The position numbers and the translations under genes are program-made. The notes under the pieces were generated by a model. The model had not been told where the DNA came from. It worked only from the letters and a program-made list of their open reading frames with translations, and did not search any database. From an uncultured Planctomycetota bacterium (lineage in GTDB: Bacteria; Planctomycetota; Planctomycetia; Gemmatales; Gemmataceae): a DNA stretch of 64,000 nt. The stretch is taken from positions 40,871-104,870 of the forward strand of contig CAVYFY010000029.1 in assembly GCA_963767835.1 (NCBI GenBank), in the 5' to 3' direction. Shown one piece after another: positions 5,902 through 63,217 of this stretch (positions within the stretch are counted from its first letter, which is position 1; every line of letters starts with the position of its first letter).

Positions 5902-5920
5902 ACCCCCAGGAACGCTGCGC

Positions 5921-6868
5921 TCATCCTTGGGCTTCGCCGAACCTCACCTCTTCCCTGTTCCATTGCGGCGGCTCCATTCCTTCGCTGCGTACACATTGCA
6001 ACATCAACTCCGCCAGATTGCCGCGACACAGTTGCCGCAGCCCGATGTAGGATGTCGTCAAGCGCGAGTTAATCTCGATGGCGTAATCGTCGCCGTTCTT
6101 GCCGAGCACCAGATCGACGCCGAGGTAGCCTTGCAAGCCATCGATCCCCGCCACCGCCGCCAGCGCCAGCGCCGTCGCGCGCTCCGCCAAGTCGGGCGGC
6201 AGGGGGAGCGAGCCACCCTGATAGCGAAATCGGCCATCCTGCGAAAGATGTTGCCGGGCCGGCATGAGCGGAATCGTCTGGCGTGGACCGATCAACAGCG
6301 CGACGCTCGCTGGCTGGCCGCGCTCATATTCCTGGATAACGAATTCTCGTGGGGACAGGCTTTCCAGCCTGTCCGCGTCGGCGCCAAAATGGACAGGCTG
6401 GAAAGCCTGTCCCCACTGGATGAGGAACGTCGCTAGCGAACCGGCGCCGCAGCGCGGTTTCATCACCCAGGGCGGCGGAAACGACGCGAAGTACTCCGGA
6501 TCAAACGATTCGGTGCGCGGATGCCGCACGCCGCGTTCGTGCCAGAACGCGGCCGTCGCCAGCTTGTCGCCGGTGAGCGCGATCGCAGTCGGTTGCGAGC
6601 CGAGCAAACGCCCGCCGACATCGAGCACCGTCTGGCTCAGGCCGCGCAAATGATCGTCGAATTCCGGGGCGATCACGAGCGTCCAGTCGCAACGCGCCGC
6701 CGTTTCGCGGAATTGGGAATGCGGTGCCGTCACGAACTCGATATCGGGCAGCCGGCGAAAATCGCCGCTCACGGCTTCGAGCATGGCCCGGCCTTCGCGC
6801 AAGAGCGATTCGGGCACATCGCGTCCGAGGCCGCCGGCGGTGACATGTTCGTAAACGAAGACGCGCAT
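5921..6868 (-). CDS. ATP-grasp domain protein carrying an in-frame palindromic insert
   Basis: ATP-grasp-like motifs (VMKPRCGAGSLATF, EYERGQPASVALL, GVDLVLGKNGDDYAIEINSRLT). Start taken at the internal MRVFVYEH. Confidence 0.6.
   Translation of the reverse strand: MRVFVYEHVTAGGLGRDVPESLLREGRAMLEAVSGDFRRLPDIEFVTAPHSQFRETAARCDWTLVIAPEFDDHLRGLSQTVLDVGGRLLGSQPTAIALTGDKLATAAFWHERGVRHPRTESFDPEYFASFPPPWVMKPRCGAGSLATFLIQWGQAFQPVHFGADADRLESLSPREFVIQEYERGQPASVALLIGPRQTIPLMPARQHLSQDGRFRYQGGSLPLPPDLAERATALALAAVAGIDGLQGYLGVDLVLGKNGDDYAIEINSRLTTSYIGLRQLCRGNLAELMLQCVRSEGMEPPQWNREEVRFGEAQG
6351..6414. repeat. R2 palindromic repeat pair (ggggacaggctttccagcctgtcc / inverted copy), in frame inside the ATP-grasp CDS
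   Basis: Two 24-bp self-complementary units in inverted orientation with a 16-bp spacer. They encode WGQAFQPVHFGADADRLESLSP. Confidence 0.8.
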
Positions 6869-6905: not shown

Positions 6906-8999
6906 ATGTCCCACCACGACATCCTAGGCCCCGATGGCGCGATCGCCCGGCGTCTGCTCAATTACGAGCCGCGTGCCGAGCAATTGCGCATGGCCGATGC
7001 GGTAGCCGATGCTCTGCGCACTCCGGGGCATCTCATGGTCGAAGCGGGGACTGGCGTCGGCAAGAGCTTCGCGTATCTGGTGCCCGCGATTCAGGCTGCC
7101 TGTGCCGCGACCGACGGGCGCGTCGTTGTCTCGACGCACACCATTGGCCTGCAGGAACAGCTCATCCGCAAGGACATTCCGTTCCTGCAAAGCGTCATGC
7201 CGGAGAAATTCGCCGCGCTGCTTGTGAAGGGCCGCGGCAACTACGTCAGCAAGCGCCGGCTTAAAGTCGCACATCAACGCAGCAATTCGCTGCTCACCGA
7301 AGTGGGGGCGTTCGAGCAACTCGATACGCTCATGGCCTGGGCGGAGAACACGAAGGACGGCAGCCGCAGCGATCTCGCTTTTCGCCCGCTCGCCCCGGTC
7401 TGGGAACTTGTGGAGAGCGATTCGAGCAATTGCCTGGGCAAGAAATGCCCCGAGTATGCCGATTGCTTTTACTTCAAGGCCCGCGCCAACATCCAGAAGG
7501 CGAAGGTGCTCGTCGTCAATCACGCCCTGTTCTTCGCCGATCTGCAATTGCGCTCGCTCAATCCCGAAGTCGGCATCTTGCCGAAGTATCAGGCCGTCAT
7601 TTTCGACGAAGCCCACACGCTGGAGGACGTCGCTGCCGAGCATCTCGGGCTGTCGATCACGCGCGGGCAGGCAGACTGGCTGCTCAATCGCCTGTACCTG
7701 GAGCGGCGGGGCAAAGAAGTCGGGTTGCTCAAGGTGCACGGTGTCGCAGCCGATTGGCGGCAGGTGCATTACACGCGCACCGTCACGCATCAATTCTTCA
7801 ACAGCATTCTCGACTGGCGCCGCGAATACGAATTCAAGGCGAAGCGGATTTCCAACAGCGATTCGCTGCGGGTGCGCGAGCCGGAGATTGTCGCCGACAC
7901 GCTGTCCGCGGAATTCAAGAAGCTCTCGGACGTGCTCGGCAAGATCGCGGACACCGTCAAGGATGACAAGGAGCAAATCGAGCTGGAATCGGCGTCATAC
8001 CGCTGCGAGTCGCTGGCCGCTGATCTGGATGCCTGGCTGAAGCAAAAATTGCCGGGCCAGGTTTATTGGATCGAGGGCTCCGGCGAACGTGGCGATCAGC
8101 TTAAGCTCGCGAGCGCGCCGATCGAGGTGGGGCCAATCTTGCGCGAGAAGATTTTCAATCGCATTCCGACCGCGATCCTGACCAGCGCCACCCTCAGCGT
8201 CGGCGGATCGGCCCCATTCGATTTTTTCAAGGAACGGCTTGGCTTCCCCGACGACTCCCCCAATGAGCCCGAAGCGCAAAGCGAGGGCGCAACAACCTCC
8301 CTCGCTTTGCGCTTCGGGCTCAGTCCGGGTGGGCCGACAGGAAAATCGGCCCCCACGATCCAGCTCGGCAGCCCCTTCGATTATCGCCGGCAGGCCGAAT
8401 TGCACCTGTTCCGCGACATGCCCGACCCGACCGCCGATCCGCGGGCGTTCGAGGATGCCTGCTTGGCCAAAATCCAGGAGTACGTGCGGCGAACGCAAGG
8501 GCGAGCGTTCGTCTTGTTCACGAGCAACCAGACGCTGCAACGCGCCGCCCACAAGCTGCGCGATTGGCTTGATGCCGAAGGCTTGACGCTCATCAGCCAA
8601 AGCGACGGCACGCCCGCCAATCGGATGCTGGAGCATTTCCGCGCGGCCGACGGCGCCGTGCTGTTCGGCGTCGATAGCTTTTGGCAAGGCGTCGATGTGC
8701 AAGGCGAGGCGTTGTCGAACGTGATCATCACAAAGCTGCCGTTCACGCCGCCGGACCGTCCGCTGGTCGAAGCCCGCTGCGAGGCGATCGCGGAGCGCGG
8801 CGGCCAGCCGTTCCCCGATTATACGTTGCCGCAAGCGATTTTGAAGTTGAAGCAAGGCTTCGGCCGCTTGATCCGCACGAGGAGCGACACGGGCCTCGTG
8901 GCGATCCTGGACCCGCGCATGATGACGAAGCAATACGGCCGGCGATTTCTCGAAGCGCTGCCGGGCTGTCGGCGGTTCGTGGATGGAGTGGAGTTGTAA
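6906..8999 (+). CDS. dinG: ATP-dependent DNA helicase, DinG/Rad3 (XPD) family
   Basis: Walker A GTGVGKSF, DEAH-like VIFDEAHTLED, and the C-terminal motif region TSATL...FWQGVDVQGEALSNVIITKLPF. Confidence 0.8.
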   Translation: MSHHDILGPDGAIARRLLNYEPRAEQLRMADAVADALRTPGHLMVEAGTGVGKSFAYLVPAIQAACAATDGRVVVSTHTIGLQEQLIRKDIPFLQSVMPEKFAALLVKGRGNYVSKRRLKVAHQRSNSLLTEVGAFEQLDTLMAWAENTKDGSRSDLAFRPLAPVWELVESDSSNCLGKKCPEYADCFYFKARANIQKAKVLVVNHALFFADLQLRSLNPEVGILPKYQAVIFDEAHTLEDVAAEHLGLSITRGQADWLLNRLYLERRGKEVGLLKVHGVAADWRQVHYTRTVTHQFFNSILDWRREYEFKAKRISNSDSLRVREPEIVADTLSAEFKKLSDVLGKIADTVKDDKEQIELESASYRCESLAADLDAWLKQKLPGQVYWIEGSGERGDQLKLASAPIEVGPILREKIFNRIPTAILTSATLSVGGSAPFDFFKERLGFPDDSPNEPEAQSEGATTSLALRFGLSPGGPTGKSAPTIQLGSPFDYRRQAELHLFRDMPDPTADPRAFEDACLAKIQEYVRRTQGRAFVLFTSNQTLQRAAHKLRDWLDAEGLTLISQSDGTPANRMLEHFRAADGAVLFGVDSFWQGVDVQGEALSNVIITKLPFTPPDRPLVEARCEAIAERGGQPFPDYTLPQAILKLKQGFGRLIRTRSDTGLVAILDPRMMTKQYGRRFLEALPGCRRFVDGVEL
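8265..8321. repeat. perfect 23-bp inverted repeat with 11-nt loop, in frame inside dinG
   Basis: gagcccgaagcgcaaagcgaggg cgcaacaacct ccctcgctttgcgcttcgggctc. It encodes EPEAQSEGATTSLALRFGL. Confidence 0.8.
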
Positions 9000-10112: not shown

Positions 10113-11615
10113 ATGACGCGCGAAACCAAGATTGGGTTGCTCGTGGCCGGTTCGTTTCTGTGTCTGGTTGCCGTGGTCGTGGCGTCGAAGTGGCGTGGCG
10201 GCGATGGCGGCGATGCGGAAGAGCAGACGGTTGCCCCTGGCGCGGTCTTGCACCCGACGCAGAATTCGCCGGATGCGAAACCAAAGGGGGAAGTACCGCC
10301 TCCGAAGTCCGCTGCCGTGGCCGCCGCGCAGGCGAAGGGCAAGGAGACGAAGAAAGAACTAACGCAAGAGGACGGCAAGCAGAAGGGTTTGCCGGGATTG
10401 TATATCGCCCCGGCGGCGACGCAGACGGAAGAAGCCGCCATCGAAAAGGATTTGGAACAGAAGCGTCTGGAGGCTCTTGCCAAGAAGATCGAGGAGGAAA
10501 AGAAGCGGCCCGAGGACGTGGGCACTCTGCCGGCATTGCCGGCGCAAGGCGAACCGGGAGTGCTGCCGGCATTGCCGAAGGCGGAGGTTGGCGCATTGCC
10601 GCCGTTGCCGAAGGCGGAGTTAGGCGCGTTGCCGCCTTTGCCGAACGCGGAAGTGGGTAAGTCGCCACAGGAGCAAGCTCTGGTCCCAGCGCCGACGCCA
10701 GAAGATTCGAAGACGCAGACGAAACGGGCCAAGGAGGGCGAAAAAAAGGCGGCGCAGGGAGGGATCGGCAGCGTGGAGATGCAACCGGTCAAGCCGTTCA
10801 ATGATAAGACGCCGCCGATGCCCGATTTGCCGAAGCCGGCGCCATTTGATCCGGTCGGAGGCGTGATCCCGGCGAAGCAGATCGACCCAGCGCCCGCGCC
10901 GAAGGGGCCCACGTTCGGTCAGTTGGAACCGTTGCCTGAGCCGACCAAGCCGGTCATTCCGTTTAGCGACCCGAAACCGCCGCCGCCGCTGCCCCCGGCC
11001 GCAATCAAGGAGCCCGGCCCGATCGCCGTGATTCCACCGACGGGAGGCACGCTGCTGCCGGCGCCGCCGATCATTGTCGGAGGCGGTCGTCACCCGTTGC
11101 CCGCGGTCAAGGATGTCAACATCGATGCTTACGAGTGCCAAAAAGGGGACAACACCTTCGATATCTTGAGCCTGCGCATGTACGGCACCGAAAAATATGC
11201 CGACGCGCTGTTGAAATACAATCGCGATCACAGCGGTATGGTCAAAAATGGCTCCACCCTCAACGTCAATCCGCCGATCCTGAATCCTGGGCAGCAAGTG
11301 CTCAAGCCGCCGCAGACGATCCTCGATAGCGATTATCGCTCCTTGGTTCGGAGCGCAACGCCGCAAGTGAGGATGGACGCGCCGACGCCGTTGACGCAGC
11401 CGCCCGGGCCGATCGCCAAAGTCTCCAATCCGCCGCGCCCCGGCCCTGGCGGCACCTACACCGTGCAGAACCCGGCCGGCGAAAGCATCCTCGACATCGC
11501 CGAGCGCGCGCTGGGCGACCGCAGCCAATGGCCCCGCATTTACAGCGCCAACCCGAATTACCCCCCGCAAAACCGCATCCCCGCCGGCACCACGCTGACG
11601 CTGCCGAGCAACTGA
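10113..11615 (+). CDS. membrane-anchored Pro-rich protein with two C-terminal LysM-like domains and 4x 11-aa tandem repeat
   Basis: N-terminal TM helix, coiled-coil KDLEQKRLEALAKKIEEEKK, and the repeat LPALPKAEVGA x4 at 10540-10660. LysM-like YECQKGDNTFDILSL and YTVQNPAGESILDIAERALGD. Confidence 0.7.
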   Translation: MTRETKIGLLVAGSFLCLVAVVVASKWRGGDGGDAEEQTVAPGAVLHPTQNSPDAKPKGEVPPPKSAAVAAAQAKGKETKKELTQEDGKQKGLPGLYIAPAATQTEEAAIEKDLEQKRLEALAKKIEEEKKRPEDVGTLPALPAQGEPGVLPALPKAEVGALPPLPKAELGALPPLPNAEVGKSPQEQALVPAPTPEDSKTQTKRAKEGEKKAAQGGIGSVEMQPVKPFNDKTPPMPDLPKPAPFDPVGGVIPAKQIDPAPAPKGPTFGQLEPLPEPTKPVIPFSDPKPPPPLPPAAIKEPGPIAVIPPTGGTLLPAPPIIVGGGRHPLPAVKDVNIDAYECQKGDNTFDILSLRMYGTEKYADALLKYNRDHSGMVKNGSTLNVNPPILNPGQQVLKPPQTILDSDYRSLVRSATPQVRMDAPTPLTQPPGPIAKVSNPPRPGPGGTYTVQNPAGESILDIAERALGDRSQWPRIYSANPNYPPQNRIPAGTTLTLPSN

Positions 11616-11624
11616 CCGGGCAAT

Positions 11625-11745
11625 GAGGAGCGAAACGGGCCTGGTGGCGATCCTGGACCCGCGCATGGTGACGAAGCAATACGGCCGGCGATTCCTGGAT
11701 GCGCTGCCGGGCTGCCAGCGGTTGGTGGATGGCGTGGAGGTGTGA
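11625..11745 (+). pseudogene. orphan duplicate of the last ~40 codons of dinG (gene fragment)
   Basis: 11625-11745 is ~85% identical to 8879-8999 (TRSDTGLVAILDPRMMTKQYGRRFLEALPGCRRFVDGVEL*). The upstream helicase body is absent. Confidence 0.7.
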
Positions 11746-11988
11746 ATCATACTAACCCGAAGCGCAAGCGAGGCTGGCAGCTACCCTCGCTGGCGCTTTG
11801 GGTTGGTATCGTCCGCCCGCCGAGCGCAAACCGCGAAAAATCCAAATCATTGCCGCCCGCCCCTTGCCAATCGCGTGCCGGTTCTTCATACTGCCTTAAC
11901 GCTAAGAATTTTGCTGCGTCTGCAACCTTCTTCCTCTCGCCGGAGTACATTGGAGGGGAGATAACGCCTTCACATCAAGGGGACATCC

Positions 11989-13750: not shown

Positions 13751-15717
13751 ATCGGGTAGGAGGGGGAATTACTTCCCCCGTCCTCCCACACCACCGGACG
13801 TACTTTGCGTATCCGGCGGTTTCTGTTCTTGTTGATACCGGTCATACAGCTGGCTGAGGTTGGCCAAGCCCAAAGACTCGATCCAAGTCTGATTCATGGC
13901 GGTGTTGACGGCCGGACACGCCGACAGATGCCACCACCCCTTGTTCGACCCGGCGGTCATCCGCGCGTGGCGGACTGGAACGCCGTGGCTTTGCAAGAAG
14001 GCCGCGATCGTTCTGGTCCGTTTCAGTTGCTTCAACCGCACGCAGCGCAGCTTCCGACGAATCCAACTGTCCAATTCACGCAGCAAGGTCTTGCACTTCG
14101 CAAAACGGAAGTACGCGATCCAGCCCGTGAGAAAACTGTTGAGTTCGCCGGCCATCTCCTCGATTTCGATGCCTCGATTTCGACGAGTGATCTGCCGAAT
14201 GCGTTCCTTGACGCGTTCCTCACTCTTGGGCGCTGACTCCCAACTCCCCGCCGCGCAGAAGACGATAGCCGAGAAACTTGCGGTCCTCGACGTGTGCCAC
14301 GGCACTCTTCTCCCGATTGACGCGGAGCCGAAGTTTCCCTTCCAAGAACGCTGTCACCGACGCCAGCACCCGCTCGCCCGCTGCCTTCGACCGCATGTAG
14401 ATGTTGCAGTCGTCGGCATAGCGGCAGAAGCAGTGGCCACGCCGTTCCAGTTCCTTGTCCAGGTCGTCCAACAGCAGGTTCGCCAAGAGCGGCGAAAGCG
14501 GTCCGCCTTGCGGGGTCCCCTCGTGCCGAGCGACACACACGCCGTCTTGCATCATGCCCGCTTCCAGGAAGCGGCGAATGATCTTGAGCAGACGCTTGTC
14601 GCCGACACGCCGGGCCAATCGCGCCATCAGGATGTCATGGTTCACCCGGTCGAAGAATTTCTCCAGGTCCATGTCCACCACGATGGTTCGGCCCTCGGCC
14701 ACATACTCTTTCGCCTTGGCCAGAGCGGTGAATGCTCCGCGTCCCTTGCGAAAGCCATGGCTCGATGCCGAAAAGGTCGGGTCCAGAAGCGGGTCCAAAA
14801 CTTGCAGGATCGCCTGCTGCACCAAGCGGTCTACCACCGTCGGAATGCCCAACTGTCGCACTCCTCCGCCGGCCTTCGGGATTTGCACCCCGCGGATCGG
14901 CGACGGTTGATAACTCCCGTCGAGCAGCGAATCGGTGAATCCTTGCAGATGCTTGCGAACCCAGGGCAACAGTTCGCTGACGGTCATCCCGTCCACGCCT
15001 GCTGATCCTTTGTTCGCCCGCACGCGGTCAATTGCTTCGATCAAGTTCTGGGTCCGGGTCACCTCCTCCATCAGTCGGTCCGGCAAGGCACGTGCTTGGC
15101 CCGACGCCGCAGACGCTTGTGACTCCACGCACCCACCAGCTTCGGTCCCGCCGTCGCCAGTTGAGCCGGGGCGCAGCTCCTCCGCCTGCTCCGTAAACAG
15201 GAGCGTTTGGTAGTAGCTGCCTTGCTGTCGCTTCACGTCCATCGAGTCGTTCCAGACGGTCGCTTGCAAGAATAGATTCAGCCCTTCATCCGCTCTTGCG
15301 AGGCGGTTGGCCTCCCCGACGTGTGTTGCCCGCGCAGGATGGCACATCGCCGAACGAGCGGGTTACTACGGCCTCTGCTGACTTCTCCCTGGTCCATCCC
15401 ACGACGTTGCCGCCGCAGTAGTCCGGATCGACCGGACGGACGGGGAGATCTCCCAGGGTAAGTTGTGCATCCTTCGCTCGGTCTTCGCCGGATTTACCCG
15501 CGTCGCCTACGGAATGGCTATCAGGCGTCCCCGTCTCATGCCGGGTTACCCAACGACGCTGGCCTTGTATCCGATTTCTGTTCGTCGAATCCGAGTTGGG
15601 GGCATCGGCTTTCTTCAGATTCCGCCTCGCGACGGACACCCTTGCCTAGCCTTGCGGTTCGGGCCATCACCGCCCGCAGAGGACTTGCACCTCCTGAGAC
15701 ACAACATACCTGTGCAC
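13751..15717 (-). mobile_element. group II intron (IIC-like features), boundaries approximate within about 30 nt
   Basis: Encodes an RT/maturase. Putative domain V (accgccggatacgcaaagtacgtccggtggt, with a CGC triad) at 13796-13830 and domain VI with a bulged A at 13755-13789. A 5' GUGCA lies 6 nt after a hairpin at 15712-15717. Confidence 0.6.
13769..15071 (-). CDS. group II intron-encoded reverse transcriptase/maturase (IEP); frame break near 14225-14300
   Basis: RT motifs NKGSAGVDG, RQLGIPTVVDRLVQQA, FRKGRGAFTA, CFCRYADDCNIY; X/maturase domain IRRKLRCVRLKQLKRTRT...GWWHLS. Start taken at MEEVTRTQNL. The ORF tail reads through DV/DVI, so the true stop is uncertain. Confidence 0.75.
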
Positions 15718-18009: not shown

Positions 18010-19292
18010 ATGAAGACGCGCACAGTAAAAACCTGGCTTCTGTGGATCCTTGCGGGCCTACTCGGGCCGGTTTGCGGGTGCGCGACTCATTTAGCAGGCA
18101 CGCCGAATCTTTTGCAGCATCAGGATCCGCAGCAGGTCTACGCCGATTGCCCGGCCGATTGGCAATCTTCCGATGCGGCCGTGATTTATGCGACTGATCG
18201 GGCGGTCGTCGATCCGGCGCGAAGCAGCCGAGCTATGGATTCGGCCGGACGCCGAGCCTGACCTTTGGTGTTGCCGATGTCGCGTTGAATCCACAGCCGA
18301 GCTGGAAGGAATTGACGCAGGACAGCACGACGGCCCGGCGCAGCCGGGAATACGAGTTGAAGGTAGCGAGCGTCCGTGCCGACGGACAAATCCAGCCGCT
18401 GGTCGAGCAGGCGATGCTGAGCGGGCAGGGCGGATCGATCGTGCAAGCCGCCGCGCTGGAGGACCAAGCGGCGGCCGAGCGTCTGCACGCGCTTCTGCGC
18501 CAGCGGATTGCGCCGACCTCGCACAAGGATGTCTTCATCTTCGTGCATGGCTTCAATTGCACGTTTGACGATTCGGTATTCCGGGCCGCGGAGATCTGGC
18601 ATTTTATGGGGCGCGTCGGCGTTCCCGTCGCTTATTCCTGGCCGGCCGGGTTCGGTGGACTACGTAGTTATCCCTACGACCGCGAATCGGGCGAATACAC
18701 CATCACGCATCTGCGGCACTTCATCAAAGCCGTCGCCGAGTGTCCCGGCGTGGAGCGCGTGCACCTGATCGCCCATAGCCGCGGCTGCGATGTGGCGATG
18801 TCGGCCCTGCGTGAGCTGAATCTTGAAATCACGGCCCAACGCAGATCAACGCGGCGGGAACTCAAGCTCGAGAACTTGGTATTGGCCGCTCCGGACGTGG
18901 ACGAGGAGGTGTTCTTACAGCGGTTTGTGGCGGAGAACCTGCTGCAAGCCGCCCGGCGGACGACGATTTACGTTTCACCAAACGACAAGGCGATCGAGCT
19001 TTCCGGCGCCGTGTTCGCCAGCCGGCGCATGGGGGCGTTAGGCGTCAAGGATCTCAGCCCGAAGATCAAGGAAAGCCTGGCCAGGATGCCGAACGTGCAG
19101 TTCATCGAGTGCAATGTCTCGGGGCTCGCGGAGACACACAATTATGTCTTCACGCACCCGGCCGCCCTGTCGGACTTGATTCTCGTCCTGCGCGACCGCC
19201 GCGATCCAGGCGCCGCCAACGGCCGGCCATTGCGGCAACCGAGCGAAGGCGTCTGGGAATTGACCGACGATTATCTCGTGAAAAGCCGTTGA
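18010..19292 (+). CDS. lipoprotein alpha/beta hydrolase of the DUF900 family; frame break near 18200-18235
   Basis: Lipobox LLGPVCGC; IYATDRAVVD, then in the next frame SYGFGRTPSLTFGVADVAL...IFVHGFNCTFDDS...IAHSRGC. Confidence 0.65.
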
Positions 19293-19296
19293 ATCT

Positions 19297-19425
19297 GAAA
19301 TTTAGCCACGGATGAAACACCGATGAAACACCGATGGGAGGAGAATTCAGCTTTCCGGGAATCCTGTCACTCTCTGTCATCCTTGTTTGATCTGTGTTCC
19401 ATCAGTGGCTAAATTTAGACTTACG
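19297..19425. repeat. R4 MITE-like element, copy 1 (about 130 bp with 40-45 bp terminal inverted repeats) filling the spacer between convergent stop codons
   Basis: aaatttagccacggatgaaacaccgatgaaacaccgatggg ... ccttgtttgatctgtgttccatcagtggctaaattt. Confidence 0.8.
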
Positions 19426-22944: not shown

Positions 22945-25900
22945 ATGCAACGTTATTTCCTGATTCTGTTGATTCTTGCTGTGACTCCGCCGCACGTCTC
23001 CGCGCAAGGCCTCAAGGTCCCGCCTGGCTTCGAGGTCGTCGAGTTCGCCGACGGCAAGCTCGCCAACGATATCCATGTCATGACCGTCGATCCAAAGGGC
23101 CGCGTTATCGTGGCGGCGCGCGGCTACATCCGCATCCTCGTCGATGACGACGGCGACGGCAAAGCGGATCGCGCCCTTGAATTCGCGTCCACGCCCAAGG
23201 ACGGCGCCATGGGCCTCTTGTGGGAAGGCGACTCCCTTTATGTCACGGGCGACGGCGGTTTGCGGCGCTTCACCTCGAAGACCGGCGACAAGGCCGACGG
23301 GCCTTCCGAACTGATTCGCGCCATGAAGACCGGCGGTGAGCATTCCTCCCATGCGATTCAGCGCGGCCCCGACGGGTGGCTTTACGTTCTGTGCGGCAAC
23401 AACGCCGGCATCGACAAATCCTACGCCGATTCGCCGACCTCGCCGATCAAGGAACCGATCGCCGGCTGCGTGTTACGATTTCCACCTAGCTCCCCTCGCC
23501 CCACCGGGGGAGAGGGGCTGGGGGTGAGGGGGGCGTCATGCGAGATCGTCGCCCACGGCTTTCGCAATCCGTACGGCTTCGATTTCAATCTCGATGGCGA
23601 TCTCTTCACCTTCGATTCCGACAACGAGCGCTGCGTCAGTTTGCCGTGGTATGAGCCGACGCGGTTCTATCACGTTATCGAGGGCCGGCATTACGGCTGG
23701 CTCAATCCGCAAAGGGCCGCGTTTTGGCGTCGTCCCCCGTATTTCTGCGATGTGGTCGCGCCGATTGCCACGCTGGGCCGCGGTTCGCCGACCGGCGTTG
23801 CCTGCTATCGGCACAACCAGTTTCCGCCCGAATATCACGGCGGCTTCTTCCTGTGCGACTGGACCTTCGGCAAAATCCACTTCGCCACGCTCAAACGCAA
23901 GAACGCCTCCTACACCGCCGACACGCGCGTCTTCCTCGAAACGCTCGGCGACAACGGCTTCGCGCCCACCGCATGCGCCGTCGATCCGAAGACTGGCGAT
24001 CTCTATGTCTCGATCGGCGGTCGGGGCACGCGCGGCGCAGTCTATCGCATCCGGCATCCGGAGCGGTTCAAGGCACTGCAAGGCAAGCTCGCGCCACTGC
24101 CGATGGCGAAACGATCGCTGGAATGGCGCGATGGGTTGGAAGACGTGATCGACAAGAAAGCGACCTCAAAATCGGCAAGCGATCGTCTCTGGGCAATGCA
24201 AATGACACGCCGACATTTTCTAAAGATCAAGCCGCCCGTCATAGATACGTTGTACAAATACGCGCAACTCAACTACGACCATGAAGATTCGGCAGTGCGG
24301 CAGGCAGCGCTTGATGTCATGGAGCGCTTTTCGCGCGAGTTGCTGGCAGGGCAACTTGGCTCGGAAAAGCTCGACTACGCCTTTTCCGTGGCGTATGGGG
24401 CAGGCAAAATTCGCACCAAGCAGGATGGCGAAGATGTGATCGGAGCGATGCTCAGCAGCAAGTCCCGTGGCCTTCGCCTCGACGGAGTGCGCCTTCTTCA
24501 GCGTGGCCTCGGCGACATCGGCGCTGCTAAAGAATCAATCGGCACCATTTGGGAAGGTTATACTGCGCGGAAGGGAATGAGAATCCTCGATCCGACGCCA
24601 ACCCTGTCCCGTTTTTTTCCGAGCAACGATCCCGACCTCGACCGTGAAATCGCGCGCACCCTTGCAATGATTGAGCATGACGACGCAAAGGTACGCTCGC
24701 GTTTCCTCGCCAAGTGCAGCGCCGATTCCAATCCGATCGACGATATTCACTATCTGGCCTGTTACGCCCGCCTCGCGGGCCAACGCGCCGACAAGGAAGC
24801 AACACTCGTCGCGGCCACACTGCTCGATCTCGATCGCAAGATTGCTGCCCGTAAGCTAAATCGCGACTCGAATTGGCCGTTGCGCATGCGCGAGCTCTAC
24901 GTTGGCCTTGCTCAGAAGGATGCGCGGCTGCACGTGGCGATGGTCGCGCATGCGGCGTTTGGCCGGCCCGATCATGCGCTCTTTGCGAGCACCGCCGGGT
25001 TTCCCAAGGAACGTGCTGCCCGCATTTTTCTGGATCGTTGGCAACGCAATAAGGATTATGCTTTGTCCGGCACTATCGTGCAATTGTTCGACGCGCTTCC
25101 CGCAGATGACGTGCTGCCGACTATCCGCAAAGGCTGGGGTGAAACCGGCCAGGACTCGGCGTTTTTACCGCTGCTGGCGAAGAAGCCCGTGATGGAAGAT
25201 CGCGGCAAATTCATCGACGGGCTCAACTCGCCGCAGTCCGCCATTCTCGACGCCTGCGTGCGCGGTCTTGAACCAGCTCGACGCGAAAAGCGAACGCCGC
25301 CGAATCGTTCGCCTTGATTCGCGCCTTGCATCGCACTTCGGACAAAGCAATCGGCCACGCGCAAATTGCTCGTCGGCCGGCTTGAGAAAACCACCGGCCA
25401 GGCCTTCGGCGCTCGACAGCAAGCGCTGGATCGCCTGGCTCGAAAAGCAGCATCCCGAGTTCGGCAAACGTCTGGCGAATCCCGACGGCGTCGATGTCGC
25501 CAAGTGGGACCAGCGCCTTGCCAAGCTCGATTGGGATCGGGGCAATGCCGTCACGGGCAAGACCGTCTTCAGCAAGGCGAGTTGCCTCAACTGCCATTCC
25601 GGCTCGCAAGCGCTCGGCCCCGATTTGGCCGGCGTCGCCAATCGCTTCTCGCGTGCCGACCTCATGACCGCGATCTTGCAGCCGTCCAAGGACGTGCCGG
25701 CCCGCTATCAGACGACGCTGGTCGAAACGCAGGACGGCAAAACATATCAAGGCATCGTCATCTACGACGCCGTGGACAGCCTGATCCTGCAAACGGGCGC
25801 CGCCACAACGATCCGCCTCGACGCTGCCAAGATCGTCAGCCGCCAGGCCAGCGCCCAATCGCTGATGCCCGCGGGATTGCTCGATCCGCTTGCCGACCAG

Positions 25901-27697: not shown

Positions 27698-30123
27698 ATG
27701 TTTCGTTTGCCACTTCCATTCCTAGCATGCGCACTGTTGCCCGGTATCCTCGTCGCGCAGCCGCCGAGGAAGATCGAGTTCAATCGCGATATTCGGCCCA
27801 TTCTCTCGAATCATTGCTTCGTGTGCCACGGCCCGGACAACAACCTGCGCAAGGCGAAGTTGCGGCTCGATGATGAGAAAGACGCTCACAAGAAGGTGAT
27901 CGTTAAGGGGGACGCGCTCGCCAGCGAAATGTTTCGCCGGCTGGTGACGGACGATCCCGATGAGAAGATGCCGCCGCCGCGAACGAAGAAGGAGCTGACG
28001 AAAAAAGAGATCGAGTTGATTCACGCCTGGATCGAGCAAGGGGCTAAATACGAGGCGCACTGGTCGTTGATCGCGCCGCGCCAGCACGAGCTGCCGAAGG
28101 TGAAGAATATCGACTGGGTGCGCAACGACATTGATCGCTTCGTGCTCGCTCGGCTGGAGGCGGAGGGTTTGCAGCCGGCGCCAGAAGCGGATCGCCGCAC
28201 GTTGATCCGCCGGCTGTCGTTCGATCTGATCGGCCTGCCGCCGACGCCGGAGCAGGTCGATGCGTTTCTGGCCGACAAGGACGCCGATGCTTATGAAAAA
28301 GTCGTCAATCGCTTGCTCCGGTCGAAGCATTTCGGCGAGCGCATGGCGGTTCACTGGCTCGACATCGTACGCTACGCCGACAGCGCCGGCTATCACAGCG
28401 ACAACGAGCGCAGCGTTTGGCTTTACCGCGATTGGGTGATCGACGCGTTCAATTCGAACCTGCCGTTTCGCGAATTCGCCATTGAGCAGATCGCGGGCGA
28501 TTTGCTGCCGAAGGCGACGGCCGAGCAAAAAATCGCCTCGGGGCATAATCGGCTCTTGCAGACGACGGAGGAGGGGGCGCCCAGGCGAAGGAATACACGG
28601 CGAAGTACGCCGCCGACCGCGTGCGCAATTTTTCGACCGCCTGGCTCGGCCTGACCCTGGGCTGCACCGAATGCCACGATCACAAGTACGATCCGTTCAC
28701 GACCAAGGAGTTCTACAAGCTCGCCGCGTTTTTCGCCGACATCCAGGAAGCGCCGATCGGCCGGCAGGCGCAGACGCCGATCATGACCGGCGCCCAGCAA
28801 GAGCAAGCGAAAAAGCTCGACGAGCAAATCGCGGCGCTGCAAAAGGAAATCGCCACGCTGCCGAAGGAGGAAGCGAAGGCGGTCCAGGCGAAGCTCACGG
28901 CGGTGCAGAAGGAGAAGGCGGAGTTCACCAAGAAGCTCCCGTCCACGCTGATCTCGACCGCTAGCACGCCGCGCATCGTCCGCATTCTAAAGCGTGGCAA
29001 CTGGCTCGATGAATCGGGCGAGATCGTGGTCCCCGACGTGCCCGCGGCGTTGCCGGCGCTCTTTCCCCCCTCTCCCTCCGGGAGAGGGGCCGGGGGTGAG
29101 GGCGGAAGTGCCAAAAATCCGAATGCTCCACCCTCACCCCCTTCCCCTCTCCCGGGGGGAGAGGGGAGAAAAGGCAAACGCCCGACTCGTCTCGATCTCG
29201 CGAACTGGCTCGTGGATGCCGACAATCCGTTGCCCGCGCGAATCTTCGTCAATCGGCTTTGGCTGCTCTATTTCGGCCAGGGCATCGTCAAGACCGCGGA
29301 CGATTTCGGCGCTCTCGGAGCATGGCCGACCCATCCGGAATTACTCGATTGGCTCGCCCTCGATTTCCAGCAACACGGCGGCGACATCAAGCGCTCCATC
29401 AAGCAAATCGTCATGTCCGCGGCCTATCGCCAATCCTCCAAGGGAACGCCGGAGCTTCGGCAACGCGATCCGTACAACCAGTTCCTCGCTCGCCAGGGCC
29501 GCTTCCGCCTCGATGCCGAATTCGTGCGCGACAATGCCCTGGCGATCAGCGGCCTTTTGGTCTCGAAGATCGGCGGCCCGAGCGTCAAGCCGTACCAGCC
29601 AGCGGGCTACTGGCGCTACCTCAATTTCCCGACACGCGAATGGGCCAACGACAAGGGCGAAAACCAGTATCGCCGCGGCGTCTACACGCACTGGCAACGC
29701 ACTTTCCTGCAGCCGAGCTTGCTGGCGTTCGACGCCTCGACGCGCGAGGAATGCACCGTCGAGCGCCCGCGCTCGAACACGCCGCAGCAAGCGCTGGTGC
29801 TCTTGAACGATCCGACCTACGTGGAAGCATCGCGCGTCTTCGCCGAGAAGATCGCCAAATCGCCCGGCAAAACCGCCGAGCGCATCAACTTCGCCTTCCG
29901 CCTGGCGTTGCAAAGGGACGCGGACGCCGACGAGATCGCCATTCTGACGAAGCTATACGAGAAACATCGGACGCATTTCGATGCGAACCCCAAGGACGCG
30001 CTGGCGATCCTCGGCGTCGGCTATGCGCCGGCATCGAAGCAAATTGCGCCGGCCGAACTGGCGGCCTGGACCTCGGTGGCGCGGACGGTCTTGAACCTGC
30101 ACGAGACGATCACGAGAAACTAA
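27698..30123 (+). CDS. PSCyt1/PSCyt2(DUF1549)/PSD1(DUF1553) planctomycete cytochrome c protein; frame break near 28560-28625
   Basis: Signal peptide; CFVCHGPD; DUF1549 DRFVLARLEAEGL...HWLDIVRYADS; LGLTLGCTECHDHKYDP; DUF1553 LANWLVDADNPL...FDASTREECTVERP. Confidence 0.75.
29065..29168. repeat. R1 composite palindrome (two inverted units plus spacer), in frame inside the PSD1 CDS
   Basis: cccctctccctccgggagaggggccgggggtgaggg ...27 bp... ccctcacccccttcccctctcccggggggagagggg, encoding PPSPSGRGAGGEGGSAKNPNAPPSPPSPLPGGEG. Confidence 0.85.
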
Positions 30124-34238: not shown

Positions 34239-34250
34239 GGCGGCATTTCC

Positions 34251-34352
34251 TCCCCTCTCCCTCCGGGAGAGGGGCCGGGGGTGAGGGCGTTTGGCATCAT
34301 TTTTAGCGAGCCACTCCCTCACCCCCAGCCCCTCTCCCGGAGGGAGAAGGGA
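34251..34352. repeat. R1 composite palindrome, intergenic copy
   Basis: cccctctccctccgggagaggggccgggggtgaggg ...spacer... ccctcacccccagcccctctcccggagggagaaggga. Confidence 0.85.
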
Positions 34353-34406
34353 GCGAAGATTCCTGGCATTTCATAAAATCACACCAACGCCCGCCGGGGA
34401 ACCACT

Positions 34407-40501: not shown

Positions 40502-40574
40502 GGAATTCTCCTGTTGAGGATGAGTTTGCGAATCGATCCTGTCCCATCAGGATCACGCTCATTCACTTCCGCGT

Positions 40575-40642
40575 GGGGCCAGGCTTTCCAGCCTGGCCAA
40601 GACTTCATTTGCTGGTTCGGCCAGGCTAGAAAGCCTGGCCCC
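40575..40642. repeat. R2 palindromic repeat pair, intergenic copy with compensatory A>C / T>G changes
   Basis: ggggccaggctttccagcctggcc aagacttcatttgctggttc ggccaggctagaaagcctggcccc. Confidence 0.8.
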
Positions 40643-40646
40643 ACGA

Positions 40647-42867: not shown

Positions 42868-43000
42868 ATTCAACGCCTAATCTAGCCACGGATGGAACAC
42901 AGATGAAACACGGATGGGAGAATTTGTAACAGTCCCGATTTCCAAACAGCCAATCCTATCCGTGTTTCATCTGTGTTCCATCCGTGGCTAAATTAAGCGT
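42868..43000. repeat. R4 MITE-like element, copy 2, between the Rieske and cytochrome b genes; its terminal repeat supplies the Rieske stop codon
   Basis: attcaacgcctaatctagccacggatggaacacagatgaaacacggatgg ... ccgtgtttcatctgtgttccatccgtggctaaattaagcgttgg. Confidence 0.8.
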
Positions 43001-43616
43001 TGGCTATCTCCGGTTCGCCGCCGCCGAGCGGGATTTTCTGGGCGTCGTTGGCCTTGTATTTTTTGTAGGTGACTTTAATGCGATTGTGGTCGGGATTGTC
43101 GGGATCGATTTCCCAGGCCAGCGTGTCCATGCCGCGCTGGGCGGGGTTGCCGGCGGCGGCGCGCTTACCGTCAAGCAAAAAGGTGGCGGCATGGCAGGGG
43201 CAGGCAAACCCGGTCGGCCCCGTGTTCACCGAACACCCCAGGTGCGGGCAGATCGTGGTGAAAACCATCAAGTAGGCGCTCTTCTGTTCTTCGGTCAGGT
43301 TGGCGAGATTGGCCGGTTTCGGACCGCGCTGCACCACCCAAACTCGGCCCAGCACGTCATTCGGGTAGAGCGTCCAGCCGTCCATGCGGGTGTCGCGCAC
43401 CACGCCCTGCACCGGCGTGTTGATGGCAAGATCGTCGAGCTTGATCCCCTCGACGAGCCGCATGGCGCTCTTGGGCCCCTTACGATTGCGCGGATCGAGG
43501 AGATAACAAACGATCGGCACGCCGATGATGGCCGAGAAGATGGCGCCGATGCCGAAGATGGCCCAGGCCAACAAGGAACGGCGATGGGGTTGGTCCGCGA
43601 GGAGGTTGTCAGCCAT
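42993..43616 (-). CDS. Rieske [2Fe-2S] iron-sulfur subunit
   Basis: CPHLGC ... CPCH Rieske boxes and an N-terminal TM helix. Confidence 0.8.
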   Translation of the reverse strand: MADNLLADQPHRRSLLAWAIFGIGAIFSAIIGVPIVCYLLDPRNRKGPKSAMRLVEGIKLDDLAINTPVQGVVRDTRMDGWTLYPNDVLGRVWVVQRGPKPANLANLTEEQKSAYLMVFTTICPHLGCSVNTGPTGFACPCHAATFLLDGKRAAAGNPAQRGMDTLAWEIDPDNPDHNRIKVTYKKYKANDAQKIPLGGGEPEIANA

Positions 43617-50486: not shown

Positions 50487-50590
50487 TTAATTCAAAGATT
50501 TAGCCACGGATGGAACACAGATTGAACACGGATGAAAATCCCGGAGCGCATGCCAGGTTCTTGCCATCCGTGTTCAATCTGTACTACAAA
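50487..50590. repeat. R4 MITE-like element, copy 3 (right arm truncated/degenerate)
   Basis: atttagccacggatggaacacagattgaacacggatg ... catccgtgttcaatctgtactaca. Confidence 0.7.
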
Positions 50591-52414: not shown

Positions 52415-52420
52415 TTGCAA

Positions 52421-52494
52421 GCCCCAGGATAAGCGCAGCGTTGCTGGGGGTCGCGGGTTCTTAACCCCCAGGAACGCTGCGCTTATCCTGGGGC
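52421..52494. repeat. R3 palindrome (30-bp arms, 14-bp spacer) between argB and argD; half-copy at 5902-5932
   Basis: gccccaggataagcgcagcgttgctggggg tcgcgggttcttaa cccccaggaacgctgcgcttatcctggggc. Confidence 0.8.
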
Positions 52495-52507
52495 TTGCGG
52501 GTGCATT

Positions 52508-61507: not shown

Positions 61508-63217
61508 GTGACCCCTGAGCCCTCCTGGCGGCGTCGGATTCTACAGGCCTGGCCCGTGCTCGTGCCGCTCCTGTTGGCCGCCATCGCCCTCTACTTCCTG
61601 CGCGAGCCGATCTACTATTGGCGGCAGGGCGAATCGCTCTACGACGAGCAAGCGATCCAGGAATGGGTGCGCGAAGCGCGCGTCGGCTCAAGCAGCTTGC
61701 CAGAAATGCTCAAGGATTTCTTCGACCACGCTGCGGAGAGTAGCGCCGATTTGCGAGCCGATCCGGGATCGGCCGCGCGCATCCGCGCCGAGCATAAACA
61801 GAAGCGCGAGGAGATTCAGCAATTCCTCGCGGCGCTGTGCGTGCCGCCGACGAAGATCTACGCCGGCCAACTCCCCTTATTTCCGATCATTTATCGCGTG
61901 GAAGTGCGCTTCGACGACGCCCTCAAAAAGAAATACGATCCCTCGCTCGATTTCGAGCCGATCGTCTGGGACTCCGAGAGCCCGCGCCATCCGAACCAGT
62001 ATCGTGAGCTAACGGACTACCAGATCTCCCGCGACGAGGGGGCCAAGATCTACGTGCAGTATCAGCTGCACGCCTATCTGCAAAAGCAATTTCACGAACG
62101 CGAGGATGACGCCAAGCGCCGGCTCACCAACCTGTGGGTGCTCGTCTTCGCCTTCGTCGCCCTCTTGTGGATGTTGCTGATGCAGCGCCGCCAGGACGCC
62201 CGCGAACGCCAGCGCCTGCAAACCGAACAGCAAATTCAGGAATCGCGGCAAAAGCACCTCGAGGAAGAATTGCGCCGCCAGGAAGCCGAACGCAAGCAAG
62301 AGGAGGCCGAGCGCAAGCAGCTTGAGCTCAAGTCGCAGATGTTTCACTCGATCGGCATCATGGCGAAATCGTATGCCCACAACATCAAGAACTTGCTCGT
62401 GCGCCCCAATGACTTGCTGCGCCGCTGCCTGGAGGAAGAACCCGCCACTCAAGACAAGGCAGGCATGCTCCGGGAAATTCAACAGACGCTTGGCACCGTC
62501 ACCGAGCGTTTGCAGGAAATCTTGCAGACGGTGCAGCGCGATCCGCACAAGTTCGAGCGCGTGCGCATCGATCTAAACGCGCTGGCTCAGGACTTGCACA
62601 AGACCTGGGCCGAGCAGGCCGAGACCAAGTGGAAGATGGTCGTGGAGCTCGATCTGTACCATGCGACCCCTCTACCTCAGGGAGAGGGGCACGGGGTGAG
62701 GGCAGCCACCGAACTGACGCCGATCCACGTCAGCGGCGACCGCTCGCACTTGCAGCAAATGCTGGAGAATTTTCTATTTAACGCCCGGGACGCAATCGGG
62801 GAGATGCGTAATTACCTGCGCAAGCAAGCGCGGCCGGAAGGCGTCGAAGGACATGGGCCGCTTGATGAAGCGCAACGTCAGGCGCTGATCGCCGCCGCCG
62901 GCTGGAAGGGCCGCGTGGTCATCCGCACGGCGCTGATCGGCGGACACCCCGTCATTGAGGTGGAAGACAACGGCATCGGCATGACGCAGGAAACGCGCGA
63001 TCATTGCACGGAGCCAAATTTCTCGACCAAACGCAACAACGCGCTCTACGCTGGCTTGAGCGCTGGCATGGGCCTGGGCTTGTCGTTTGTACAGATGATC
63101 CTCGAACATCACGGAGCGACTCTCGAAATCGATTCGGAGCCGCTCAAGGGCGCTCGCTTGCGCGTTCGCTTCCCGGCCGCCGGCGCGCGGCCAGCGCAAG
63201 AGTCCGCGCGGCCGTAG
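61508..63217 (+). CDS. sensor histidine kinase (TM, coiled coil, HisKA-like, HATPase_c)
   Basis: EELRRQEAERKQEEAERKQ coiled coil, H-box region MFHSIGIMAKSYAHNIKN, N-box NFLFNARDAI, G-boxes EDNGIGM and GMGLGLSFV. Confidence 0.75.
   Translation: MTPEPSWRRRILQAWPVLVPLLLAAIALYFLREPIYYWRQGESLYDEQAIQEWVREARVGSSSLPEMLKDFFDHAAESSADLRADPGSAARIRAEHKQKREEIQQFLAALCVPPTKIYAGQLPLFPIIYRVEVRFDDALKKKYDPSLDFEPIVWDSESPRHPNQYRELTDYQISRDEGAKIYVQYQLHAYLQKQFHEREDDAKRRLTNLWVLVFAFVALLWMLLMQRRQDARERQRLQTEQQIQESRQKHLEEELRRQEAERKQEEAERKQLELKSQMFHSIGIMAKSYAHNIKNLLVRPNDLLRRCLEEEPATQDKAGMLREIQQTLGTVTERLQEILQTVQRDPHKFERVRIDLNALAQDLHKTWAEQAETKWKMVVELDLYHATPLPQGEGHGVRAATELTPIHVSGDRSHLQQMLENFLFNARDAIGEMRNYLRKQARPEGVEGHGPLDEAQRQALIAAAGWKGRVVIRTALIGGHPVIEVEDNGIGMTQETRDHCTEPNFSTKRNNALYAGLSAGMGLGLSFVQMILEHHGATLEIDSEPLKGARLRVRFPAAGARPAQESARP
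62666..62703. repeat. R1 GC-rich palindromic unit (single), in frame in the histidine kinase CDS
   Basis: cccctctacctcagggagaggggcacggggtgaggg, encoding ATPLPQGEGHGVRAA. Confidence 0.75.

Follow-up and report, generated by a model that had tools for sequence, protein, structure and literature searches.

The gene at 5921..6868 (-) in the 64,000-nucleotide stretch of DNA analysed here (the window) encodes an ATP-grasp_3/preATP-grasp_3 ligase of 315 aa, and its reading frame runs through a palindromic repeat, R2, of which another copy lies between genes. How such a repeat comes to stand within the frame of an enzyme, what keeps its hairpins paired and what became of the protein that received it are the questions raised by this locus. 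The initial annotation had proposed that R2 is under selection for the secondary structure of the DNA or RNA and that it had lengthened the ligase by 22 residues.

R2 doublets in the window and the extent of the family

The 24-mer GGGGACAGGCTTTCCAGCCTGTCC occurs four times in the window, arranged as two inverted pairs. It is found without mismatch at 6351-6374 (+) and 6391-6414 (-), and with two and three mismatches at 40575-40598 (+) and 40619-40642 (-), respectively, while none of 100 shuffled sequences contained a match. The intragenic palindrome extends 2 nt further on each side than the 24-mer reported first, forming a 68-bp doublet (6349-6416) with 26-nt arms that are 100% complementary and a 16-nt spacer (6375..6390), whose length and sequence differ among copies. 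The first arm (6349..6374) corresponds to one REP unit, with a GTGG head, a stem formed by GGACAGGCT and AGCCTGTCC and a TTCC loop; the second (6391..6416) is its exact reverse complement, and the heads point outward, as in a tail-to-tail dimer. The presence of a palindromic repeat in frame in an ATP-grasp gene was thereby confirmed, the host ORF matching the ATP-grasp_3 (E 2.6e-25) and preATP-grasp_3 profiles. The intergenic inverted repeat has 27-nt arms with 96% complementarity and a 20-nt spacer, its arms being GTGGGGCCAGGCTTTCCAGCCTGGCC (40572..40598) and the loop variant CTAGAAAG (40619..40645). A relaxed search for the R2 stem core recovered these four units only, i.e. two doublets, in the 64-kb window.

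On folding, a single R2 unit leaves a 4-nt head (GTGG) free and forms a 9-bp stem closed by a 4-nt TTCC loop, in agreement with the earlier description of each unit as a hairpin in itself. Both doublets fold strongly as RNA, at -61 to -64 kcal/mol on either strand (z ~ -10), and at -33 to -37 kcal/mol as DNA. The intergenic element ends 1 nt from the stop codon (40647) of a 726-aa minus-strand ORF and lies 70 nt upstream of the start of the next minus-strand ORF (40501), a typical REP location, past a stop codon and between two same-strand genes. An Rfam gathering scan of the window found no family at R2, its sole finding being a group II intron, with domains D1-D4 matched at 15349-15636 (-) at 119 and 43 bits.

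Beyond the window, Planctomycetota MAGs together with soil and freshwater metagenomes contain the R2 stem-loop core at no fewer than 150 loci, so the further copies that the initial annotation expected do exist. A scan of one genome per species, using a pattern in which the 5' stem position could be A or C and the 3' one T or G, returned 31 loci, mainly in Planctomycetota MAGs, 16 of them in one Gemmataceae MAG. At least 120 loci from soils, peat, lakes and groundwater were obtained from metagenomes with a search that required two intact cores in inverted orientation, the core thus being fixed by the pattern and the information residing in the flanks alone. The family core is CAGGCT-TTCC-AGCCTG preceded by GTAG, GTGG or GTAC heads: among the matches listed (244 units in 122 doublets), positions -6..-3 read GTAG in 123 units, GTGG in 69 and GTAC in 16. 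All window units carry GTGG and have 4-nt loops and 9-bp stems, the stem being 8 bp in the GTAGGT subfamily. Most doublets are non-coding, with 101 of 127 located outside any long open frame among the matches listed, and no duplicated flanks indicative of a target-site duplication were detected at the window copies or in 126 doublets among the matches listed.

Exact A..T-type R2 units were also found in a Pyrinomonadaceae MAG (L017, Acidobacteriota) and in a Verrucomicrobiota MAG (L029), which could represent either presence across phyla or binning errors. Presence across phyla would bear on whether R2 is maintained vertically in a lineage, as is characteristic of REPIN-RAYT systems, or spreads horizontally. 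Arrays of three or four units, tandem or nested, occur in L114 (3432-3549), L077 and L088, including one in which QAFQPDCSSC is encoded three times in a single open frame.

Stem covariation and the conserved unit

In each arm of the intergenic copy, one stem pair differs from that of the intragenic copy by A>C on one side and T>G on the other, the compensated change noticed at the outset, and the loop of the second arm has an additional C>T change. This paired difference had been taken as a change acquired in the intergenic copy. However, the C..G form occurs letter-for-letter in 25 loci of other genomes, and of the stem combinations permitted by the genome scan (all four of A/C x T/G), 25 loci had C..G, six had A..T and none was mixed. 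The difference between the window copies separates two pre-existing subfamilies, to the second of which both intergenic arms belong, and does not record a repair in place.

The R2 family as a whole comprises subfamilies distinguished by compensated changes in their stem pairs. Among the matches listed (244 units), the first stem pair outside the core was paired in 98.4% of units, against 49.7% expected from column composition, with T-A in 148, G-C in 58 and A-T in 30; a C-G pair is additionally found in the window and genome copies. The second outer pair was paired in 94.7% of these units, against 73.4% expected, with G-C in 196, C-G in 26 and T-A in four. These are counts of cells and not of independent events, yet each position has several pair types. 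Pairing at the level observed was reached in none of 5000 shuffles, and beyond offset 3 from the core, pairing in the same 244 units was no better than chance. The covariation suggested as a check in the initial annotation is thus borne out across copies, and R2, with its four pair types, is a clear case of stem covariation in nature.

Doublets whose arms derive from two different subfamilies indicate which structure is being maintained. Such hybrids were found in L039, L080, L098, L110, L117, L125, L142 and L148, and also in L005 and L030; in them, 4/4 pairs form within arms and only 1-3/4 between arms. Given that hybrid doublets pair within and not between their arms, the conserved object is the unit hairpin with its head and not the long hairpin of the doublet. 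The 8-9-bp hairpin of each unit is therefore under structural constraint. The earlier claim that base pairing is conserved by selection on structure holds for the unit, and the constraint is real, but it does not extend to the long doublet hairpin and need not reflect a function of the DNA or RNA in the host. The constraint is most simply placed on the repeat's own propagation through recognition of the hairpin on single-stranded DNA.

R2 as a probable REP-type element and the alternatives

We consider it probable, with fairly high confidence, that R2 is a REP of the GTAG-tagged superfamily that carries a GTGG head and is arranged as an inverted tail-to-tail pair, i.e. a REPIN-type non-autonomous palindromic mobile element. 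According to the text of Di Nocera, De Gregorio and Rocco (2013, PMC3733652), members of this superfamily consist of a stem-loop of 6-9 bp with a terminal tetranucleotide, GTAG, which degenerates to GTRG and, in Opitutus terrae, to GTGG; R2 likewise has a stem-loop unit in this size range and a terminal tetranucleotide, and is mostly extragenic near gene 3' ends. Units of the superfamily measure 20-40 bp and are numerous within a genome, the corresponding figures for R2 being the two doublets of the 64-kb window and the 16 loci of one Gemmataceae MAG. Further likenesses to the families described there are the dimers with variable spacers, the several subfamilies per genome and the preference for intergenic sites just downstream of genes, with a minority of in-frame intragenic dimers (PMC3733652). 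REP families in Planctomycetes, as well as both tail-to-tail and head-to-head dimers, are reported in the same text, and the closest to R2 are the GTGG-headed GTAG-20 of Opitutus terrae and the families of Rhodopirellula baltica. R2 differs in its hosts, which are uncultured Planctomycetota and organisms from soil and freshwater metagenomes, and in that several of its coding copies replace native residues instead of being simply inserted. The sequence CAGGCT-TTCC-AGCCTG is absent from the main text and five supplementary files of PMC3733652, and R2 is not among the REP families named in these, as distinct from the 24 family consensus sequences listed in its Figure 1. It adds a widespread REP family to those of Planctomycetota and of soil and freshwater metagenomes.

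The arrangement of two inverted REPs around a short spacer, able to form one long hairpin, is that of the REPINs (Bertels and Rainey 2011, PMC3116915; Nunvar 2010, PMC2817692), with which R2 also shares near-identical copies at unrelated loci and the lack of target duplication. Hybrid doublets of two subfamilies are frequent in R2, unlike in the REPIN/RAYT system, and that system is defined by a single-copy RAYT gene flanked by repeats, of which no example was found for R2 in the window and loci (~950 kb). By analogy, a REP-associated tyrosine (HUH/Y1) transposase would recognize each hairpin and its head on single-stranded DNA, and copies that lost the stem would cease to propagate, leaving the covariation seen among the survivors. 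A scan for HUH/Y1 motifs over the same ~950 kb detected no RAYT (Y1_Tnp) beside any copy, and a tblastn search with the RayT of E. coli gave nothing significant, a weak test because RAYTs are single-copy. In a soil contig (L095), a 236-aa ORF at 11123-11833 (+) has an HVHF...YIESNP motif and a sub-threshold match to Y1_Tnp (E 0.16); it is located 3.5 kb from a doublet of the GTGGTG subfamily and is bracketed by direct repeats of ~30 nt, which are not R2 units. In L132, an ORF lying between two doublets of identical sequence, 734 bp apart, was considered as a REP-flanked transposase and rejected, as it has no HUH/Y motif. Readings of R2 as an integron attC site, a CRISPR repeat or an intrinsic terminator were also rejected, since GTT/AAC ends, an array and a T-run are all lacking.

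The covariation could alternatively reflect selection at the level of the host, the hairpin being kept for a function in RNA or DNA, for example to stabilize mRNA 3' ends, to serve as a site for RNase III or gyrase or to pause translation, and we regard this as unlikely. The intergenic copy, 1 nt past a stop codon and within a same-strand gene pair, does occupy the classic place of a REP-type mRNA stabilizer, and a role as RNA is argued for many REPs in the text of PMC3733652. Both of the arm differences that distinguish the window copy from that of an orthologue described below (P0002) are G.U-compatible in the sense RNA, but two such changes are expected by chance about one time in four. Moreover, copies are found in all contexts, including intergenic and 5' regions and the cores of enzymes, and in different frames; the symmetric doublet carries no strand signal; no Rfam family matches; and the long hairpin required by an RNase III site is disrupted in hybrid doublets. 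A host RNA role for some R2 copies is possible, and the data do not require it.

Slightly less likely still is that R2 is a MITE of the TIR type moved by a DDE transposase, with the 26-nt arms as its terminal inverted repeats, perhaps a trimmed version of a longer element. The perfect inverted termini would suit such an origin, and the C..G hairpin is central in a repeat of ~110 nt at 25 loci of two MAGs, the ends of which read TAGTGGTCCGA.../...TCGCACCACTA and are always flanked by C and G, as would fit a TA duplication in CTAG. But the bare doublets lack a target duplication and are far more widespread than the 110-nt form, the subfamily arms combine freely while each retains its own stem, and what is conserved is a head (GTAG/GTGG/GTAC) with a self-pairing unit rather than a terminus for transposase binding. 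The CTAG-flanked element does indicate that the R2 hairpin module can travel in another vehicle. The hosts of the 110-nt repeat are Gemmataceae Baikal-deep-G178 and a MAG labelled Singulisphaera (within L001-L031), for example at ~4540-4650 of L003, and its outer ends begin with GTGG after the TA.

It is very improbable that the encoded peptide (GQAFQP...RLESL) is the selected object, as a protein module to which the DNA palindrome is secondary: the frame giving QAFQP / RLESL does recur in the window protein, P0002, P0008 and the L089 kinase, but other frames are used in P0006 (GFPA/GRKAW) and L107 (RLSSL/QAGKP), most copies are non-coding, the segment is modelled with low confidence and without a defined structure, and the spacers vary freely.

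Insertion of R2 into coding sequences

If R2 is a mobile REP doublet, the copy at 6349-6416 would have landed in a surface element of the ATP-grasp ligase, with a loss of ~56 nt of native sequence that keeps the frame. The element covers residues ~151-175 of the protein, its 68 nt spanning from the third base of a Q codon to the first base of an R codon, and the frame is unbroken through it, giving (Q)WGQAFQPVHFGADADRLESLSP(R); the R2 arms contain no stop codon in any frame. The host protein has 1848 homologues at E <= 1e-10, and its start at ATG 6868 agrees with the N-termini of orthologues. In a codon-level comparison of the site, orthologues read FLI-RNRDDGLRVWSPAFHECxDx-EFIVQ and the window protein FLI-QWGQAFQPVHFGADADRLESLSPR-EFVIQ, such that ~20 native residues (~56 nt) are missing from the latter and the net gain is four residues. 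Instead of the 22-residue addition first proposed, some 24 repeat-encoded residues replace a 15-residue surface helix. Only P0002 shares the repeat-derived residues among the 120 orthologues listed, in line with the expectation that orthologues would not all carry them.

Structure prediction, also suggested at the outset, places the insert on this helix. The AlphaFold model of the window protein has a mean pLDDT of 93.9, which falls to 64-66 only over residues ~150-170, between the strands at 148-150 and 176-180, whereas in the model of the empty orthologue P0005, a confident helix (153-167) connects the strands at 148-150 and 172-176. Compared with known structures, the window model matches ATP-grasp folds, the best being 3df7 at a TM-score of 0.74. 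Outside the element, the window gene and P0002 differ with a dN/dS of 0.20 and a dS of 0.63. The host gene is probably still functional, the remainder of its fold being predicted to be intact. Repeats of the R2 type can hence overwrite a helix of a folded enzyme with the rest of the fold predicted to persist, and loops of 20-30 residues modelled with low confidence in proteins from these genomes can be repeat-derived, which should be borne in mind during annotation.

Sequence comparison shows that this group of ATP-grasp orthologues was hit at least three times. At the site that is filled in the window protein, P0002 has a doublet of the same subfamily, whose spacer is longer and whose arms differ by two changes. 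In P0006, a C..G-subfamily doublet is read in another frame (GPGFPAWP...PGRKAWPH), 32 nt of native sequence have been lost, and the window's right junction is matched to within 1 nt (CCCCAC|GAGGAATTC); since its 90%-identical sister P0007 has an empty site, this insertion is independent. In P0008, a 72-nt doublet of the GTAGGT subfamily occupies a different loop and is essentially a pure insertion. The identity of 50/52 nt between the arms of the window and P0002 copies, at a dS of 0.63, was considered as proof of constraint and found ambiguous, as the two proteins are 79% identical to each other and each is 81-82% identical to an empty orthologue, so they are not clearly sisters. Separate recent insertions would give the same picture, and we therefore left this identity out of the evidence for constraint.

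In the window protein, P0002 and P0006, which together represent two subfamilies and two reading frames, the CCCCAC end of the element is joined to GAG(G)AATTC within 1 nt, and at its opposite end 32-56 nt of native sequence are gone from each of the three. Simple REP insertion accounts neither for this recurring junction nor for the deletions that go with it. REP doublets may enter coding sequences while removing native DNA, for instance during break repair with the hairpin as filler, and particular junctions may perhaps be favoured; we offer this as a speculative mechanism with a low probability of being correct. If true, coupled insertion and deletion would amount to a recurrent rewriting of the same protein surface element.

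In-frame intragenic insertion of REPs is in itself a known kind of event, and the text of PMC3733652 describes, as of 2013, intragenic REP dimers that encode 20-30 residues, often in repair genes. The palindromic elements of Rickettsia (RPE; Ogata et al. 2000, as cited in PMC3733652) are comparable in being in-frame palindromes that leave their genes open and probably functional and that add a poorly structured surface segment to the protein. R2 copies are likewise inserted in frame in open genes, but the two, likened here by description, belong to different lineages, and R2 can overwrite an existing helix. RPE-1, at ~100-150 bp, would differ from R2 in sequence as well as in size.

Among the matches listed, 26 of 127 doublets are spanned by a long open frame. 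Of 19 spanning ORFs searched against Pfam, most had no domain hit or one confined to a single side of the doublet, and with so few ORFs having domain support, the true fraction of coding copies is small. The doublet in L080 was rejected as a coding copy, as it lies upstream of a RibD domain and is probably non-coding. In L089, a 66-nt doublet separates NILL from KITDFG, in frame, within a Ser/Thr kinase domain; the Pfam match crosses the element, and a native turn has apparently been lost.

Several other palindromes were observed in the window. A family with the motif CCCCTCTCCC..GGGAGAGGGGCCGGGGGTGAGGG is present as doublets at 29062-29171, 34247-34353, 62662-62704 and 23490-23532, and as this motif directly adjoins an R2 doublet in L005, different palindromic families cluster together. 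A third family (TTTAGCCACGGATGGAACACAGATGAAACACGGATG), with arms of 39-49 nt, has three copies, at 19289-19416, 42869-43002 and 50487-50535. A palindrome with 35-nt arms (ACCCCCAGGAACGCTGCGCTTATCCTGGGGCTTGC) is located at 52417-52498, and a single-arm copy of it, at 5902-5934, lies across the stop and last codons of the ATP-grasp gene. The gene neighbouring the latter, at 6906..8999(+), encodes a DinG-like helicase with an in-frame insert of 31 residues (SPNEPEAQSEGATTSLALRFGLSPGGPTGKSA) in place of the single H of the helicase orthologues from L037 and L034; the insert derives from a different palindrome, which has 31-nt arms (8257-8329) and is followed by a second small hairpin (region 8257-8357).
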